Positions 18,769 through 42,400 of a stretch of DNA of 64,000 nucleotides are shown here, one piece after another. The notes under the pieces were generated by a model. That model was not told where the DNA came from and searched no databases. It saw nothing but the letters and a program-made list of their open reading frames with translations. Both the position numbers and the translations under genes were made by a program. This stretch comes from a phage. How positions within the stretch are numbered: the first letter of the stretch is position 1; each line of letters begins with the position of its first letter. The stretch is taken from sequence record PZ583743.1; one strand, written 5' to 3'.

Positions 18769-19130
18769 TACAAACTCTCAGTAAAGGTACGAGCGATAAC
18801 GTCGCGCTGCTGTTCCGGAGTCAGAGAGTTAAAGCGAACTGCATAACCGGATACACGGATGGTCAGCTGCGGATATTTTTCCGGATGCTTAACTGCATCT
18901 TCCAGAGTTTCACGACGCAGAACGTTAACGTTCAGGTGTTGACCACCTTCAATTTTAACTGTAGGCTGTTGCTCAATTTCAATTTCACGGGCATGCAAAC
19001 CATAGAAAATTTCTGGGTCTACAAAAGAGTCCTCTTTAAAGGTTTTAGAGACAATAATTCGTGCTTGAATACCATCTTCAAAATAAATAGTACCTTTATG
19101 TGTGCCTTCAAGAATTTGATATGCTTTCAT
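18768..19130 (-). CDS. Autonomous glycyl-radical cofactor (GrcA/YfiD-like; T4 Y06I-type)
   Basis: 120 aa; C-terminal [17 protein letters not shown] glycyl-radical motif. Confidence 0.8.
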
Positions 19131-19136
19131 ATAACC

Positions 19137-19466
19137 TCAATTAGAAAATAAATTTATCCAAGATTGTTCTTTAATTAAAAATGGCTCAGAATCATATGCC
19201 ATTAAACTTTGGGTGATTAGTCCTTTAAAAGGTCCATCAATAAATTCCATGGTAAAATATGGAATTTTATTCATTAATCTTGCATTAGGAGCAGTGCACA
19301 AAACTCTGCATCCTTTGAATACGCCTTTTTGTAATTTGTATTGCTTAGGATAAAATTCGCTCAAGACGTTGTTATTTGCCAAAATTTCAAAATGATTCAC
19401 CAATTTATTTTTAATAGTTTTTGGCGAAAAATAAAGATATTCGAAAAGTTGCGTATCTGTCATCAT
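19137..19466 (-). CDS. Hypothetical protein, ~109 aa
   Basis: Start at ATG 19464-19466 overlapping the upstream TGA (ATGA). Confidence 0.45.
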   Translation of the reverse strand: MMTDTQLFEYLYFSPKTIKNKLVNHFEILANNNVLSEFYPKQYKLQKGVFKGCRVLCTAPNARLMNKIPYFTMEFIDGPFKGLITQSLMAYDSEPFLIKEQSWINLFSN

Positions 19467-20050
19467 TGCATCCCAATTACGAAAAACTGCGGACGAGTAA
19501 TACCGCCAATGCAGCATTTACTATTGCAGCAGTAATGTACAGTGTCAATATGGACGCTATAAATTTTATCCATATCAGGAGATTTAACAGGCTCATCGAT
19601 TATATACAAAATCCGCGAAAGCGATAAACCTCTGAACTTGCTTCCTTTATTACCGATAAAACTACGGACAGAATCGGTAAATAAGCGGAATCGAATATCA
19701 TCGCTAGAATAACGCGAAAATTCTTTTTTAATGTGGCCCGCAGAAATTTTAGCGTAAGCTGAAGTATTAGAAAGAACAATAACTGTTCCACCGTCATACA
19801 ACCAATTAGCGGCAAAATTAGTTACTGCAGTTGATTTACCGGATTGACGTCCACCATCTAGTCGAAGTGTGCAATACTGTTTGAGTAAGTCTTCAAATGG
19901 TGGGATATAATCGTTTTTACAAATTTCTTCTACTCTAGCATCAGAATGGTGTGTAAAAGCATTCATCAGGGATAGATAAGGACCAGTTAAAAATGTTCTC
20001 ATTTTGTTATCTCTAAATTTGGGCCATTCCATGGCGCATGAATTGTCCAT
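19463..20050 (-). CDS. P-loop NTPase-like hypothetical protein (start uncertain)
   Basis: Walker A-like GGRQSGKST; the annotated N-terminus lies inside a repeated intergenic element, so the true start may be further downstream. Confidence 0.5.
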   Translation of the reverse strand: MDNSCAMEWPKFRDNKMRTFLTGPYLSLMNAFTHHSDARVEEICKNDYIPPFEDLLKQYCTLRLDGGRQSGKSTAVTNFAANWLYDGGTVIVLSNTSAYAKISAGHIKKEFSRYSSDDIRFRLFTDSVRSFIGNKGSKFRGLSLSRILYIIDEPVKSPDMDKIYSVHIDTVHYCCNSKCCIGGITRPQFFVIGMQ

Positions 20051-20242
20051 TTCTGTGTTTACCCATTACCGCGCTTGGGCTCGACCTTATTACAGGTTGG
20101 CGGGAATCCCTCATAGAATCATGAGGTCCAGGTTGTTCCCATGTTATTTGAATGTAAATATTTTTGCCTTAATACTTATACCAGTGTGGCTTCATTAAAA
20201 TTTTTTCATCGAGTCATTTTACCTCTCCAAGTAATTATGAAT

Positions 20243-20272
20243 ATACTATCACAATTTTAGGAGAAAGTAAAC
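20243..20272 (-). promoter_or_regulatory. Early-type promoter (GTTTAC, 18 nt, TAGTAT)
   Basis: -35 at 20267-20272, -10 at 20243-20248. Confidence 0.45.
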
Positions 20273-20274
20273 TG

Positions 20275-20577
20275 TTATTTACCTTTAATTACTTTAGCTG
20301 CTTCGATAGCCGCTTGCTGAAGGTCATCCATAGACATACCGAATTTAGAAGCAAAGTTATCAATTTTCTTTTCGACAGCATTCAAAGGCTTGGCCTGTTT
20401 ACCTTCATTAGCGCCAGGAAGAGCGAGAATACGCTCTTTGTCAATATAAAGGCTTACAAGTTTCTTACGGTCTTTATCGGACAAATCGTGAAATGAATGG
20501 GCCTTTTTATTTATAGCGGCTTCTAATTTACCTGCACTCACTCGCGCTTCAGTAATAAATTCTTGATATGTTTTCAT
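20275..20577 (-). CDS. ipII: Internal protein II
   Basis: 100 aa; capsid-targeting leader MKTYQEFITEA; size matches T4 IPII. Confidence 0.85.
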   Translation of the reverse strand: MKTYQEFITEARVSAGKLEAAINKKAHSFHDLSDKDRKKLVSLYIDKERILALPGANEGKQAKPLNAVEKKIDNFASKFGMSMDDLQQAAIEAAKVIKGK

Positions 20578-20685
20578 GTGTTTCCTTTAAATGTAAATAG
20601 TTTTATTCTTTAAGTTTGGGACAATTCATGCGTGCGAATTGTCCGTTTCTATATTTATCTATTACCGGGTTCGAACTCGGCTTTA

Positions 20686-21267
20686 TTAAGAATTACCACG
20701 GGCTGCATTAGCAACAGCGTAAGCGTACTGAACATTAGCGTCCTTAAACGTACCTTTAGAGGTATCTATTTCTGCCTTAAAGCCGCCTTTAGCCATAACA
20801 TCAGCAAATTCTTTACGGAAGGCCATTGCATCAAGACCTTTCCATGATGATTTATGCTTGGCGAATTCAAGACCAGCGTAGTTGACAGCCTTAGCTAATT
20901 TATTATCAATAACCCATTTACCAGCTTTAGGCACAAACACCGGGCCTTTCTGTTTAGAGAATAGTTTTAAATTCCAGCGACGAAGGTCACCGTCAGCTTT
21001 AACAAAAGCTGCATCCAAGTTACTAGCAACAACATCTTGAATATGGCCAAATTTAAGCCCATCAACTTCAATATTTAGATCGGTACGCCAGCGAAGTCCT
21101 TCCCAAGCGAAAGCTTTAAAGTCGGAAGCTTTTGTAGCTAAGTATCGTTCAATAGGAGCAGTTTTAGGGTCAAAGCCGTTTCCACCACGATAGTTCCACT
21201 CATCTTTATTAATGCCTTGAGCTTTTCCTGTAAAGGCTTCGGCGATAAATTCTTTATATGTTTTCAT
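20686..21267 (-). CDS. ipIII: Internal protein III
   Basis: 193 aa; leader MKTYKEFIAEA; matches T4 IPIII as remembered. Confidence 0.85.
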   Translation of the reverse strand: MKTYKEFIAEAFTGKAQGINKDEWNYRGGNGFDPKTAPIERYLATKASDFKAFAWEGLRWRTDLNIEVDGLKFGHIQDVVASNLDAAFVKADGDLRRWNLKLFSKQKGPVFVPKAGKWVIDNKLAKAVNYAGLEFAKHKSSWKGLDAMAFRKEFADVMAKGGFKAEIDTSKGTFKDANVQYAYAVANAARGNS

Positions 21268-21297
21268 TTTTGTTTCCTTGTTTGTTTTGATAGAGTA

Positions 21298-21327
21298 ATT
21301 ATACCATATTAATACTTAAGCGTAAAC
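21298..21327 (-). promoter_or_regulatory. Early-type promoter (GTTTAC, 18 nt, TATAAT) upstream of ipIII
   Basis: -35 at 21322-21327, -10 at 21298-21303. Confidence 0.5.
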
Positions 21328-21330
21328 CGT

Positions 21331-21590
21331 TTAAGCTTTACCGCCAGAAATAATTCCGAAGTTGTTAAAATCGTATCCAATATCGTCAACATCTACTTTA
21401 GGGCTTGCTGCAACATAAGCAATTTCACTATGTTTTGCATGGTGTTGATTTCTTTACCATCGCCACCTAAGAAAAAATACCCATTACGTTTTAATGAGCC
21501 AAAGTCTTCCGCATCACCAATGAAAGCTTTAACTTTAAATTTAGGACCTTTGGCATCTGCTTCAGCGATAAATTCTTGATACATTTTCAT
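21331..21590 (-). pseudogene. Internal-protein-like gene, apparently frameshifted
   Basis: 65-aa ORF 21393..21590 carries leader MKMYQEFIAEA; a second frame stays open ~23 further codons to a stop at 21331-21333. Confidence 0.4.
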
Positions 21591-21596
21591 TTTTCC

Positions 21597-22010
21597 TTAG
21601 TAAATTGATTTACCATAGTATTTGTACCAAGTAGGACGTTGAGCAATTTTTTCATCTAAGCGTGCTTGACTTATCGCAATGGACGCTTCGGACGGGACAT
21701 AATTATTACGAAATTCGGCAGGGATGTCGGAAATATCCTGGACAGTCGCGTCCTTGATTTTGAAACCACGTTTCAAGCATTCAGCGATTAGCTCGATTTG
21801 ACGTAAACGTAAAAATTCGAGTTTGTCGTAAAAGAATGTTACGTGACCTGTGCCTAAGATAAATGTTGGAGAGATTTTAAAATCCTTTACACGTTTACCG
21901 TTTTGAACATGTTTACGGACTGCACCAAATACGCGTGGTAATTCACGATACTCTGCCATAAGATGTTGGTCGGTCAGTTCAGAAACAAGTGTTAAATTGA
22001 TACGAGTCAT
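21597..22010 (-). CDS. denV: Endonuclease V (pyrimidine-dimer DNA glycosylase)
   Basis: [35 protein letters not shown] matches T4 DenV as remembered; start at ATG 22008-22010 after GGAGG. Confidence 0.9.
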
Positions 22011-22037
22011 AATTTCCTCCAAGTAGTTGATGAATGT

Positions 22038-22067
22038 ATAGTATCAAAGTCCTTGGAGGAAGTAAAC
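22038..22067 (-). promoter_or_regulatory. Early-type promoter (GTTTAC, 18 nt, TACTAT) for denV
   Basis: -35 at 22062-22067, -10 at 22038-22043. Confidence 0.5.
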
Positions 22068-22068
22068 A

Positions 22069-22871
<803 letters not shown>

Positions 22872-28045: not shown

Positions 28046-28121
28046 TGGTCGAGGCAGTAGGGATCGAACCTACGACCTAGGACTTAGAAGGTCCTTGCTC
28101 TTCCTTCTGAGCTATGCCTCG
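28046..28121 (-). tRNA. tRNA-Arg (anticodon UCU), CCA encoded
   Basis: Folds by eye: acceptor CGAGGCA/TGCCTCG, loop CTTCTAA, T-arm GTAGG-TTCGATC-CCTAC. Confidence 0.85.
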
Positions 28122-28125
28122 GATT

Positions 28126-28200
28126 TGGCGGACGTGATAGGATTCGAACCTATAACCAATCGCTTAACAGGCGATCGCTCTGCCATTGAGCTACACATCC
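28126..28200 (-). tRNA. tRNA-Asn (anticodon GUU), CCA encoded
   Basis: Acceptor GGATGTG/CACGTCC, loop CTGTTAA, T-arm ATAGG-TTCGAAT-CCTAT. Confidence 0.8.
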
Positions 28201-28204
28201 AAAT

Positions 28205-28291
28205 TGGTGGGGAGTGGTGGAGTCGAACCACCCGAGTCGCAATGACAATGGATTTACAGTCCACACCGCTACCTCTACGGGATAACTCCCC
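28205..28291 (-). tRNA. tRNA-Tyr (anticodon GUA), class II long variable arm, CCA encoded
   Basis: 87 nt; loop CTGTAAA identical to E. coli tRNA-Tyr; T-arm GGTGG-TTCGACT-CCACC. Confidence 0.8.
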
Positions 28292-28300
28292 AAATTAATT

Positions 28301-28375
28301 TGGTGGCCCTGGGTGGAATTGAACCACCATCTGGCGATTATGAGTCGCTTGCTTGAACCTTCCAGCTACAGGGCC
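28301..28375 (-). tRNA. tRNA with CAU anticodon (Ile2-lysidine type or Met), CCA encoded
   Basis: Acceptor GGCCCTG/CAGGGCC, loop CTCATAA; sits at the T4 tRNA-Ile position. Confidence 0.8.
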
Positions 28376-28376
28376 T

Positions 28377-28452
28377 TGGTGCTGATTGACGGAATCGAAC
28401 CGCCGACCTTCTCATTACAAGTGAGTTGCTCTACCTACTGAGCTAAATCAGC
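28377..28452 (-). tRNA. tRNA-Thr (anticodon UGU), CCA encoded
   Basis: Acceptor GCTGATT/AATCAGC, loop CTTGTAA. Confidence 0.85.
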
Positions 28453-28457
28453 AAAAC

Positions 28458-28547
28458 TGGCGGAGGCGATAGGATTTGAACCTATGAGTCGCCGGAGCGA
28501 CTGCCGGTTTTCAAGACCGGTGCATTAAACCACTCTGCCACGCCTCC
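28458..28547 (-). tRNA. tRNA-Ser (anticodon UGA), long variable arm, CCA encoded
   Basis: 90 nt; loop CTTGAAA; T-arm ATAGG-TTCAAAT-CCTAT. Confidence 0.85.
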
Positions 28548-28549
28548 AG

Positions 28550-28623
28550 TCTCCATACAAGGATTTGAACCTTGGACCTCCTGATCCCAAATCAGGCGCT
28601 CTACCAAACTGAGCTACACGGAG
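28550..28623 (-). tRNA. tRNA-Pro (anticodon UGG), CCA not encoded
   Basis: Acceptor CTCCGTG/TATGGAG, loop TTTGGGA; 3' end abuts tRNA-Ser (dimeric precursor arrangement). Confidence 0.8.
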
Positions 28624-28633
28624 TAAATTAAAT

Positions 28634-28707
<74 letters not shown>

Positions 28708-28712
28708 AAATT

Positions 28713-28799
28713 TGGTGCGAGAAGTGGGACTCGAACCCACAAGGAAATCATTCCGCAGCATTTTAAGTGCTGTGCCTTTACCAATTTGACCATTCTCGC
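28713..28799 (-). tRNA. tRNA-Leu (anticodon UAA), long variable arm, CCA encoded
   Basis: 87 nt; acceptor GCGAGAA/TTCTCGC, loop CTTAAAA. Confidence 0.85.
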
Positions 28800-28800
28800 G

Positions 28801-28873
28801 CTGGGAATAAAGGACTCGAACCTTTGCATCCTGGAATCAAAATCCAGTGCCTTACCAACTTGGCTAATTCCCA
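28801..28873 (-). tRNA. tRNA-Gln (anticodon UUG), CCA not encoded
   Basis: Acceptor TGGGAAT/ATTCCCA, loop TTTTGAT; 3' end one nt from tRNA-Leu (dimeric precursor arrangement). Confidence 0.8.
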
Positions 28874-39482: not shown

Positions 39483-42400
39483 CAGTAAAAGCACCTTCAG
39501 TCACTAGTCTCAGAATTTCCAAGTTATCCGCAAATCAGGTGCAAGTACGCTGGGATGACGTTGGTGCTAATTTCTACTATTTTGTAGAAATCGCTGAGAC
39601 AAAAACAAACTCGGGGGAAAATCTCCCGAGCAATCAATACAGATGGATTAACTTAGGATATACTGCAAATAACAGCTTCTTTTTTGATAATGCTGACCCA
39701 TTGACATCATACGTTATTAGAGTAGCTACAGCTGCACAGGATTTTGAGCAGTCTGATTGGATTTATACCGAAGAGTTTGAAACTTTTGCTACAAACGCTT
39801 ATACATTTCAAAACATGATTGAAATGCAATTAGCTAATAAATTCATTCAGGAAAAATTTACTCTTAATAATTCTGACTATGTTAATTTTAATAATGACAC
39901 TATAATGGCTGCATTGATGAATGAATCATTCCAATTCAGCCCATCATATGCTGATGTTTCATCAATAAGTAATTTTATTATTGGTGAAAATGAGTATCAT
40001 GAAATACAAGGTTCTATTCAGCAAGTATGTAAGGATATTAATCGAGTTTATTTGATGGAATCAGAAGGGATTCTATATCTTTTTGAGCGTTATCAACCTG
40101 TAGTTAAAGTATCCAATGATAAAGGTCAAACCTGGAAAGCTGTAAAGCTCTTCAATGACCGTGTAGGATATCCTTTATCTAAGACTGTATATTACCAATC
40201 TGCGAGCACAACATACGTTCTAGGATACGACAAGATTTTCTATGGCCGCAAATCTACTGATGTTAGATGGTCAGCTGATGATGTCAGATTTAGTTCGCAG
40301 GATATAACATTCGCTAAACTTGGTGATCAACTTCATTTGGGATTTGATGTTGAAATCTTTGGTACTTATGCTACATTACCTGCAAATGTGTATCGTATAG
40401 CTGAAGCTATTACTTGCACCGATGATTACATTTACGTTGTCGCCAGAGACAAAGTTAGATACATAAAAACGAGTAATGCACCTATAGATTCTGATCCATT
40501 ATCTCCAACATATTCGGAAAGACTTTTTGAACCTGATACAATGACTATAACCGGAAATCCTAAAGCAGTATGCTATAAAATGGATTCTATCGGTGATAAA
40601 GTTTTTGCTCTTATTATTGGTGAAGTTGAAACATTAAATGCTAATCCTAGAACATCAAAAATAATTGATTCTGATGATAAAGGAATATACGTTTTAAATC
40701 ATGATACAAAAACGTGGAAAAGAGTTTTTGGCAACACTGAAGAAGAAAGAAGACGTATTCAACCTGGATATGCGAATATGTCAACTGATGGTAAATTAGT
40801 TTCTCTGTCTTCGAGTAATTTTAAATTTTTAAGTGATAACATTGTTAATGACCCTGAAACTGCAGCGAAATATCAGTTAATCGGTGCTGTTAAATATGAA
40901 TTTCCTCGCGAATGGTTAGCTGATAAGCATTATCATATGATGGCATTTATAGCAGATGAAAAATCTGATTGGGAAACTTTTACGCCTCAACCGATGAAAT
41001 ATTATGCAGAACCATTCTTTAACTGGTCTAAAAAATCTAACACACGTTGTTGGATAAACAACTCTGACAGAGCTGTAGTAGTTTATGCTGATTTAAAATA
41101 CACTAAAGTTATAGAAAATATTCCGGAAACATCGCCAGATAGATTAGTTCATGAATACTGGGATGATGGTGATTGCACGATAGTAATGCCAAATGTTAAA
41201 TTCACGGGATTTAAAAAATATGCGTCTGGGATGCTTTTTTATAAATCTTCTGGTGAAATAATTTCTTACTATGATTTTAACTATCGAGTGAGAGACACGG
41301 TTGAAATAATTTGGAAGCCAACTGGAATATTTTTAAAAGCATTTTTACAAAACCAAGAGCGTGAAACTCCTTGGTCACCAGAAGAAGAGCATGGATTAGC
41401 TGACCCTGATTTAAGACCATTGATTGGCACAATGATGCCTGATTCTTATTTACTACAAGATTCGAATTTTGAGGCATTTTGCGAAGCATATATTCAATAT
41501 CTTTCTGATGGATATGGAACTCAGTATAACAATTTACGAAATTTAATTCGTAACAAATATCCACGAGAAGAGCATGCATGGGAATATTTGTGGTCAGAGA
41601 TATATAAAAGAAACATTTATTTAAATGCTGACAAACGTGATGCTGTTGCAAGATTTTTTGAATCACGTAGCTATGATTTTTATTCTACTAAAGGAATTGA
41701 AGCATCATACAAATTTCTTTTTAAAGTTCTTTATAATGAAGAAGTTGAAATTGAAATTGAATCTGGGGCTGGTACTGAATATGATATAATCATTCAATCT
41801 GATTCTTTGACTGAAGACTTAGTAGGACAAACGATTTATACAGCTACAGGAAGATGTAATGTTACTTATATAGAAAGAAGTTATTCTAACGGTAAATTGC
41901 AATGGACTGTAACTATTCATAATCTTTTGGGAAGATTAATTGCCGGTCAAGAAGTTAAAGCAGAAAGACTCCCTAGTTTTGAAGGCGAAATTATTCGCGG
42001 GGTTAAAGGAAAGGATTTGCTTCAAAATAATATAGACTATATTAATAGAAGTCGATCATATTATGTAATGAAAATTAAATCCAATTTACCTTCTTCCCGC
42101 TGGAAATCTGACGTTATTCGTTTTGTTCATCCAGTAGGATTTGGATTTATAGCAATTACTCTTTTAACAATGTTTATTAATGTCGGTTTAACTCTTAAAC
42201 ATACAGAGACTATAATTAATAAATACAAAAACTACAAGTGGGATTCTGGATTGCCTACTGAATATGCTGATAGAGTAGCTAAATTAACTCCAACTGGTGA
42301 AATTGAACATGATTCAGTAACAGGAGAAGCAATTTATGAACCTGGCCCAATGGCTGGTGTAAAATATCCTCTTCCTAATGACTATAATGCTGAAAATAAT

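Follow-up and report, generated by a model that had tools for sequence, protein, structure and literature searches.

Why is a gene for a phage internal protein bracketed by two copies of a short palindromic element, and do the two copies do the same thing? The question is raised by ipII in a 64-kb stretch of phage DNA (sequence record PZ583743.1; hereafter the window), which is a segment of a T4-like (Tequatrovirus) genome. An initial annotation had noted two related elements of about 75 bp on either side of ipII, and suggested that they could mediate module shuffling or act as RNA-processing or binding sites. We propose, with a probability of about 0.6, that copy 1, beside vs.8, is a conserved non-coding structured RNA whose core is a recognition site, and that copy 2, beside ipIII, is a truncated paralogue edging an internal protein (ip) cassette inserted by recombination. 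Both halves of the earlier suggestion find partial support here, shuffling through the evidence of related phages and an RNA role in the case of copy 1. The two copies are not equivalent, and the window has no further ones.

Within the window, blastn and nhmmer align positions 20010-20092 with 20607-20688 as a direct repeat of 83 nt with 74.7% identity (E of about 5e-12), and the local-alignment score between the copies is 39, compared with 8.1 +/- 1.3 (maximum 18) in 2000 shuffles. Two related copies do therefore flank ipII, at coordinates that had been given correctly to about 10 nt; copy 1 was rightly located, but the full element is longer than described, extending over about 20003-20140. 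The perfect 9-bp inverted repeat of copy 2 (GGACAATTC-N8-GAATTGTCC) was located at 20619-20644 and its near-palindrome CCGGGTTCGAACTCGG at 20665-20680, and copy 1 has imperfect versions of them (GGACAATTC ... GGAATGGCC, and TCGAGCCCAAGCGCGG). No third copy was found in the window with blastn, nhmmer or a covariance model; the best extra model match, at 40094-40147, was rejected as a copy and sits within a 1032-aa open reading frame (ORF). Forty-six other loci carry one copy of the element each, and in all T4-like loci examined it stands upstream of vs.8 or an ip gene. Conservation in relatives, whose absence the initial annotation had named as part of what would refute it, is very strong. The two copies and their parts are the following:

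20003-20140, minus strand: copy 1, the full element and very probably the vs.8 leader, with P1 domain, core, 3' hairpin module and vs.8 ribosome-binding region.
20102-20140, minus strand: P1 domain, with outer helix GGGAA/UUCCC (20136-20140 with 20102-20106).
20109-20126, minus strand: P1 inner hairpin CCUCAU-GAUUCU-AUGAGG, enclosed by the outer helix.
20059-20105, minus strand: core, 47 nt, matching covariance model R1 at 67.7 bits (E 1e-24), the sole significant match in the window.
20098-20100 with 20063-20065, minus strand: P0, closing helix CCA/UGG (from covariation and RNAalifold).
20084-20097, minus strand: P2, hairpin ACCU-GUAAUA-AGGU (from RNAalifold).
20070-20083, minus strand: P3, hairpin CGAGC-CCAA-GCGCG with an A·G mismatch (from RNAalifold).
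20066-20069, minus strand: linker GUAA, between P3 and P0.
20021-20048, minus strand: 3' module of copy 1, consisting of GGACAAUUC (20040-20048), hairpin GCCAU-GGA-AUGGC (20023-20035) and then CC.
20607-20688, minus strand: copy 2, with P3, GGUAAU, 3' hairpin and leader, starting at the ipIII double stop TAATAAAG.
20665-20680, minus strand: P3 of copy 2, CCG-A-GU-UCGA-AC-C-CGG, which aligns with P3 of copy 1 and is the near-palindrome mentioned above.
20619-20644, minus strand: perfect hairpin of copy 2, GGACAAUUC-GCACGCAU-GAAUUGUCC, 9-10 bp.

The core is predicted to form a small three-way junction with covarying flanking helices, preceded by a covarying P1 hairpin domain. Its general form, described by model R1 (a covariance model of 47 positions and 12 pairs, built on 38 distinct sequences), comprises a P0 of 3-7 bp with lineage-specific sequence, a P2 of the form A/C-CCU[NUARNA]AGG-U/G, and a P3 of the form (U)CGAGC-NNNN-GYGCG(G), in which the A·G mismatch is conserved and the tetraloop is free; from P3 a linker (GUAA or UAA) leads back to P0. 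Across the 38 sequences, 87.7% of cells are paired over the whole structure, versus at most 49% when the partner strand is slid, and double changes are seen in 24 cells versus 8.4 +/- 2.4 in shuffles. The junction-proximal P0 pair is AU in 22 sequences, UA in five, UG in four, CG and GC in three each and unpaired in one; in closely related T4-like genomes it switches among U-A, A-U, C-G and U.G and is broken in none of 17 sequences. Unguided RNAalifold, applied to 17 T4-like sequences, returns P0, P2, P3 and the 3' hairpin GCCA-NGGAA-UGGC, and the 3' module AUGYGCCANGGAAUGGCCC is invariant across T4-like groups. Single-sequence folds give P1 as a nested hairpin in each lineage with differing sequence: GGGAA...CCUCAU/AUGAGG...UUCCC in the T4 type; an inner stem CCUUAU/AUAAGG in L070 and L089/FL08; CCUCA/UGAGG within GGGAG/CUCCC in L016; CACAU/AUGUG within GGGG/CCCC in V18; CUACG/CGUAG within GGAAC/GUUCC in L033; and GAAUGU/ACAUUC, GAGUG/CACUC and GUGUAU/AUACAC in the phiWec188/Pylas/L085 group. 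One P3 pair is G.U in 26 of the 38 sequences and P0 contains several more; read from the opposite strand these would be A.C, which identifies the gene sense strand as the functional one. Two loci outside the training set, L042 and L032, score 32 and 28 bits with R1. A long-range pairing of GGGAUUCC with GGAAUGGCCC was rejected for want of covariation, and a pseudoknot between the P1 loop and downstream sequence is unsupported in T4.

How widely is this structure found? The 136-nt copy-1 query matches 1,111 phage records, and the central 37 nt alone match about 1,000 at 90-100% identity, in all T4-like groups examined and in phages unrelated to T4. In T4 itself the core lies between denV and vs.8, hidden within the annotated vs.8 N-terminus. 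Among the unrelated carriers it is found in Vequintavirus V18 (where three tRNA genes lie near the unannotated gap that holds it), Phapecoctavirus phiWec188 (flanked by tRNA-Thr and tRNA-Gly), the N4-like Klebsiella phage Pylas (Pylasvirus; in a 1-kb gap following a tRNA cluster), Rheinheimera Barbavirus, Vibrio phage F88 and the 45-kb phage Ivi. These cross-family sites are always unannotated or beneath dubious tiny ORFs, and outside T4-like phages the setting is often a non-coding gap adjoining tRNA genes. Pattern scans of viral and metagenomic contigs supplied further contexts. In L028 the motif follows tRNA-Pro by 300 nt and precedes a strong intrinsic terminator by 15 nt; it lies directly 3' of a tRNA-like sequence in L085, and next to a tRNA gene in L048, L050 and the GC-rich L056 and L071; in V18, L033 and Ivi a strong sigma-70-type promoter follows 10-80 nt downstream, so that the motif tends toward the ends of transcription units. 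Covariation, the G.U pairs that fit one strand only and conservation across families thus back the suggested RNA role for copy 1.

The core matches none of the known elements that we considered. The 5,426 complete E. coli genomes searched contain no match to it, and the GTDB species set gave three pattern matches, none of them scoring with the model and nothing beyond chance; a host origin as a repeat like the repetitive extragenic palindromes (REP) or miniature inverted-repeat transposable elements (MITE) was rejected on these grounds. Rfam 15 has no family overlapping the element in the window (E <= 10) or matching at V18, Ivi, phiWec188, Pylas, Barbavirus, F88, L028 or L033 (E <= 1), and known ribozymes (hammerhead, twister, pistol and hepatitis delta virus-like) were matched neither by eye nor in Rfam. 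ARAGORN reports no tRNA or transfer-messenger RNA (tmRNA) at the element in the window and ten other loci, and an identity as a tRNA-like or tmRNA-like molecule was rejected, the permuted-tmRNA match of Pylas being sub-threshold and 400 nt away. A literature search for the core sequence or a described motif found nothing.

Some of these loci have further features. In phiWec188 (L005 2371-2866), Pylas (L040 1273-2290) and L085 (about 350 nt either side) the core forms the tip of a conserved non-coding region that is much larger, contains long-range helices such as GUGUUCUUA...UAAGAGCAC and has a tRNA-like T-arm downstream; the sub-threshold permuted-tmRNA match of Pylas is at 1917-2004. Group I intron matches occur within a few kb of the motif in L033 (3115-3418, 81 bits), L028 (12784-13079, 54 bits) and L041 (2117-2336, 43 bits). 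Vequintavirus loci also share another conserved sequence, (C)CCUUAGAGGGCUUGAUAGUGCACC, at the borders of the motif region: upstream of it (L003 2410-2440) and, in L033 (about positions 60-90 and 185-215), downstream as well. The window has its own cluster of ten tRNA genes (28046-28873, minus strand; Arg, Asn, Tyr, Met, Thr, Ser, Pro, Gly, Leu and Gln), beside which the covariance model, run over the 64 kb, finds no core motif; T4 has eight tRNA genes.

In T4-like phages the transcript context of the core is the region before vs.8, with a core-to-AUG distance of 75-101 nt in the loci examined. The initial annotation had copy 1 supplying the N-terminus of an ORF at 19463..20050. That frame does exist mechanically in the ORF list, but its N-terminus is an annotation artefact: the vs.8 start M-R/K-x-(F)-L-T is conserved in relatives and the upstream extension is not, so that the extension is very probably not translated. 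The real start is very probably the ATG at 20002-20000, giving a protein of 179 aa with copy 1 as its leader. The T4 annotation (AF158101; L001 1564-2223) extends vs.8 still further and in another frame, to 219 aa. Before the conserved start, 14 relatives have open stretches of anything from 0 to 54 codons, in differing frames and often closed by a stop directly upstream of that start, and the invariant AUGYGCCANGGAAUGGCCC is read in different frames (L025 versus L006) or after a stop (L013).

Copy 2 is not equivalent to copy 1. It is truncated at its 5' end, and R1 reports no match at 20600-20700 even at E = 10 and with its filters switched off, because copy 2, as the alignment shows, lacks P1, the 5' half of P2 and the strand of P0 that lies 5'. 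It opens at P3, with ...TCT TAA TAA AG/CCGAG... where the full element has ...CCTG TAA TAA GG/TCGAG..., and its junction 8-mer TAATAAAG matches the P2-loop 8-mer TAATAAGG of the full element (both TAATAARG); the left junction would then reflect a microhomology-mediated event at this 8-mer. What is left of the structure is still paired. Relative to copy 1, P3 of copy 2 has a compensatory change from C-G to U-A and keeps the mismatch position, and in relatives it has a G.U at the third pair (CCUGG). As minus-strand RNA the perfect hairpin has a folding energy of -12.5 kcal/mol (z = -4.1), and in L087 (ESh24) its arms GGGCAAUUC/GAAUUGCCU differ by an A-U to G-C change plus a G.U. A T4 late promoter in copy 2 (GATAAATA) was considered and rejected, being unconserved in the remaining copy-2 variants.

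The genes around the repeats, all of which are on the minus strand between 18000 and 23000, are listed in order of transcription:

22347-22835, minus strand: e, first in transcription order.
22069-22365, minus strand: ip-like ORF of 98 aa, between e and denV.
21597-22022, minus strand: intact denV, which in the window lies between e and ipIII.
21393-21590, minus strand: ip-like ORF of 65 aa, between denV and ipIII.
20686-21267, minus strand: ipIII, directly upstream of copy 2.
20275-20577, minus strand: ipII, 100 aa, the cargo between the copies (PHROG 7857, internal virion protein, E 4.5e-55).
20141-20274, minus strand: denV remnant region, the rest of the cargo, identified by comparison with T4, where intact denV occupies this position.
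19463-20002, minus strand: vs.8, 179 aa, the gene downstream of copy 1 (PHROG 1488, E 5e-79).

The 100-aa cargo gene is annotated as ipII in relatives. The remnant region consists of a homologue of the early promoter/stem-loop of T4 denV, then ATGACTCG and a stop, and then a 3' fragment that ends in ...PHWYKY and a stop. After vs.8 comes vs.7, and the order in T4 is e-ipIII-ipII-denV-vs.8. PHROG 1488 is a family of unknown function, with a weak match to P-loop or terminase-ATPase-like proteins.

Comparison of relatives at this locus reveals both empty and occupied sites. An empty site, ipIII - 45 nt - full element - vs.8, is present in vB_Eco_F25 and, judged by span, in Lutter, HEMP5, EP01, KIT06 and others. 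In the window, TB004, W143 and JE01 the site is occupied by ipII and the denV remnant between copy 2 and copy 1, and in ECML-134, G4498 and ESh24 a gene for a 157-aa DUF7412 internal virion protein stands between the same two copies; FL08 has the order e - DUF7412 ip - hybrid element - vs.8. A Klebsiella-phage lineage offers a separate case, with an otherwise identical empty form (core - 3' hairpin - vs.8; L052 and L054) and an occupied form in which an ip gene of 99-100 aa and a second 3' hairpin intervene between the first 3' hairpin and vs.8 (L013, L023 and L027). The ip gene of these three is flanked by a direct repeat of about 27 nt (GCCAAGGAATGGCCCC.TTTAA) of the 3' hairpin module, and this case arose independently of the window-type cassette; in L006 the homologous ip gene precedes the element. 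The empty and occupied sites therefore support cassette shuffling at the element, and the module shuffling suggested for the flanking repeats is strengthened by the different cargos and by the Klebsiella-phage case. The pattern fits ip cassettes entering and leaving through recombination at the element.

Several observations weigh against this interpretation as a whole. Copy 1 in full folds no better than its shuffles (z +0.5), and the mismatched P3 is missing from the single-sequence minimum-energy fold. P2 and P3 hardly vary, in part since the search patterns fixed them, and the case for their pairing therefore rests on few changes, namely G-C/G.U alternation, copy 2 and the Barba-type variants. 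The Vibrio-type L032 and L042 are unable to form the lower part of P3. A scan with the P3 stems left free gave chance matches only and no remote homologues with another P3, so that the P3 sequence must be constrained beyond pairing alone. Exchange could also be driven without the element by a 41-nt repeat family, D1, with four copies (20548-20588, 21238-21278, 21561-21601 and 22321-22361; 71-73% identity) that cover the ribosome-binding site and the first, capsid-targeting codons (MKTYQEFI...) of ipII, ipIII and the 65-aa and 98-aa ORFs. The motif TATTTACATT (families D5 and D15) is shared by the leader of copy 2 and the sequence upstream of copy 1, and together the ip leader/capsid-targeting repeats and this motif may provide extra homology for exchange.

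Could copy 1 instead code for the N-terminus of vs.8 or for a small upstream peptide (MDNSCAMEWPK...)? An open frame does join copy 1 to vs.8 in the window, as another frame does in T4, and three of the four core positions first seen to vary are, as we read them, third codon positions of one frame. That frame (CNKVEPKRGN) has no start codon, however, and is interrupted by UAG in L037 and by a 1-nt deletion and frameshift in L031; a degenerate back-translated pattern retrieved no extra synonymous variants of the core; and the inconsistent lengths and frames of the extensions described above, with a stop abutting the conserved AUG in several relatives, led us to reject an N-terminal extension of vs.8. 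Coding by copy 1 is accordingly very improbable. A harder case is that of copy 2 as the neutral scar of an old duplication or insertion, its palindrome being a by-product of quasi-palindrome correction in DNA. Copy 2 lacks half of the core, and its spacer is rare (16-25 of 50,697 phage records). The 8-nt loop of the window (GCACGCAU) has the opposite orientation in G4498 (AUGCGUGU; L088 about 1555-1580), a small inversion bounded by the palindrome arms, and FL08 has a perfect 12-bp palindrome in its single element; both are typical of template switching at a DNA quasi-palindrome. Yet the compensatory A-U to G-C change and the wobbles keep both hairpins in the four variants seen, and T4 has at the ipIII-ipII position a different, promoter-containing stem-loop (inverted repeat B, X04567), suggesting selection for some hairpin between ipIII and the gene that follows it. 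We therefore regard a purely neutral scar as rather unlikely.

Two further alternatives give the copies a part in transcription. Promoter-early stem-loop (PeSL) cassettes have been defined in the hyperplastic regions of T4-like phages, where a model of shuffling through mini-circles was proposed (Arbiol 2010; Comeau, Arbiol and Krisch 2014, PMC4122927), and both copies could be cassettes of this type, with an early promoter and a stem-loop terminator. Like PeSLs, the element is a short conserved non-coding cassette in a hyperplastic region, with stem-loops and with direct copies around a variable, often anti-defence, ORF subject to insertion and deletion, and the empty and occupied sites of close relatives fit recombination between copies; the T4 ipIII-ipII spacer is itself a promoter/stem-loop cassette. 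In X04567 (the T4 58.3-65.5 kb early region) stem-loops A, B and C are annotated between e, ipIII, ipII and denV, the same intercistronic positions, and were suggested as terminators or regulatory structures; the element is unannotated there and falls inside 'ORF 64.0' and alternative starts, and stem-loop B differs from copy 2 in its sequence and its embedded early promoter. Neither copy qualifies as a promoter/terminator cassette. A scan of 19000-22500, together with reading, found no sense-strand early promoter (sigma-70-like, or TTTACW-N17-TAYWAT) in 20003-20140 or 20600-20690, no minus-strand intrinsic terminator (GC-rich hairpin with a U-run) is present in either copy, and the sense-strand sequences 3' of the hairpins, CAAACUUAAAG and UAAUAGAUAAA, have no U-tract. 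GTTTAC, which follows the core in group-B phages, was considered as an early promoter and rejected, as no -10 element is conserved. The element also differs from PeSLs in having one or two copies per genome at one locus (two in these 64 kb) in place of many dispersed ones, and its structured core is conserved far beyond T4-like phages, in families without PeSLs, which makes a PeSL identity quite improbable. The copy-2 palindromes might otherwise be intrinsic terminators for plus-strand, antisense transcription: 20619-20644 and 20665-20680 are both flagged as terminator-like on that strand, with T-rich tails, and the region has seven terminator-like sites versus 2.7 +/- 1.8 expected. The tails are weak, however (GTTTCTAT and CTTTATTA), the genes here all run on the minus strand, and the G.U pairs of relatives (CCUGG in P3, and the L087 hairpin arms) would be A.C in a plus-strand RNA, and such terminators are improbable.

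As a structured RNA, the core resembles several known RNAs in part. T4 species 1 and 2, or RNA C/D, are non-tRNA stable RNAs of phage tRNA clusters, and the core is likewise unannotated and structured beside tRNA genes in V18, phiWec188, Pylas, L028 and L085; in T4-like phages, by contrast, it lies in an mRNA leader 8 kb from the tRNA cluster. The GUAAUA hexaloop also occurs in helix 44 of 23S rRNA, in the L11/thiostrepton region, a three-way junction with two hairpins. The P2 hexaloop on its short stem is identical to it and also belongs to a three-way junction, but the hairpins come in the opposite order, nothing else is alike and the phage loop varies as NUARNA, so that we treat the likeness as a lead only. 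The put antiterminator RNAs of HK022, of about 70 nt with two long stems and a triplex, lie just 3' of early promoters and act on a conserved host machine without a phage protein (PMC9378689). Like put, the core is a cis-transcribed phage RNA with two adjacent stem-loops and conserved unpaired bases; unlike put, it has hairpins of 4-6 bp that a third helix closes and that often stand at unit ends, with no sequence similarity, and phage searches with copy 1 and the core gave no HK022 match.

In the reading that we prefer, copy 1 would be transcribed with the early genes, in the sense of the window's minus strand, and would form the vs.8 leader in T4-like phages. The cassette of ipII and the denV remnant would have been inserted at the element by recombination, with the 8-mer common to the ipIII double stop and the P2 loop as its left junction and copy 2 marking its upstream edge, and the two direct repeats would then supply homology for its excision or exchange. 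The perfect hairpin of copy 2 probably serves as an mRNA hairpin in the intercistronic gap that separates ipIII from the cargo gene, replacing T4 stem-loop B. Loops, mismatch and linker are nearly invariant across families that share only a host class, and the core is therefore probably recognised by a conserved factor, probably from the host, that acts on the transcript. Candidate roles are processing, end protection and the insulation of transcription units, as distinct from those of a promoter or intrinsic terminator. The neighbourhood of tRNA clusters would fit RNA-processing machinery; an action on RNA polymerase like that of put is less probable, given how often the motif stands at unit ends. 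Going further, we offer tentatively the possibility that the core represents an undescribed class of functional phage RNA, a portable module carried almost unchanged by at least six unrelated families of virulent gamma-proteobacteria phages, which might dock on a host machine (RNA polymerase, the ribosome or a tRNA- or RNA-processing enzyme) and whose loop TAATAARG might double as the microhomology that moves cassettes.

The vs.8 start is probably mis-annotated in T4 and many relatives, and is corrected by the conserved start. If our reading is true, the best-studied phage, T4, carries an unrecognised and strongly conserved RNA structure that has been annotated as protein, and the presence of the core beside tRNA clusters in phages that are unrelated hints that they interact in a common way with the RNA machinery of the host. 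Internal proteins are anti-defence cargo that the phage injects: GmrSD is blocked by IPI, and E. coli ECOR17 is a host on which IPIII is required (PMC9391042). A repeat that brackets ip genes, with natural empty and occupied sites, would thus offer a concrete route by which T-even phages may swap their anti-defence cargo.

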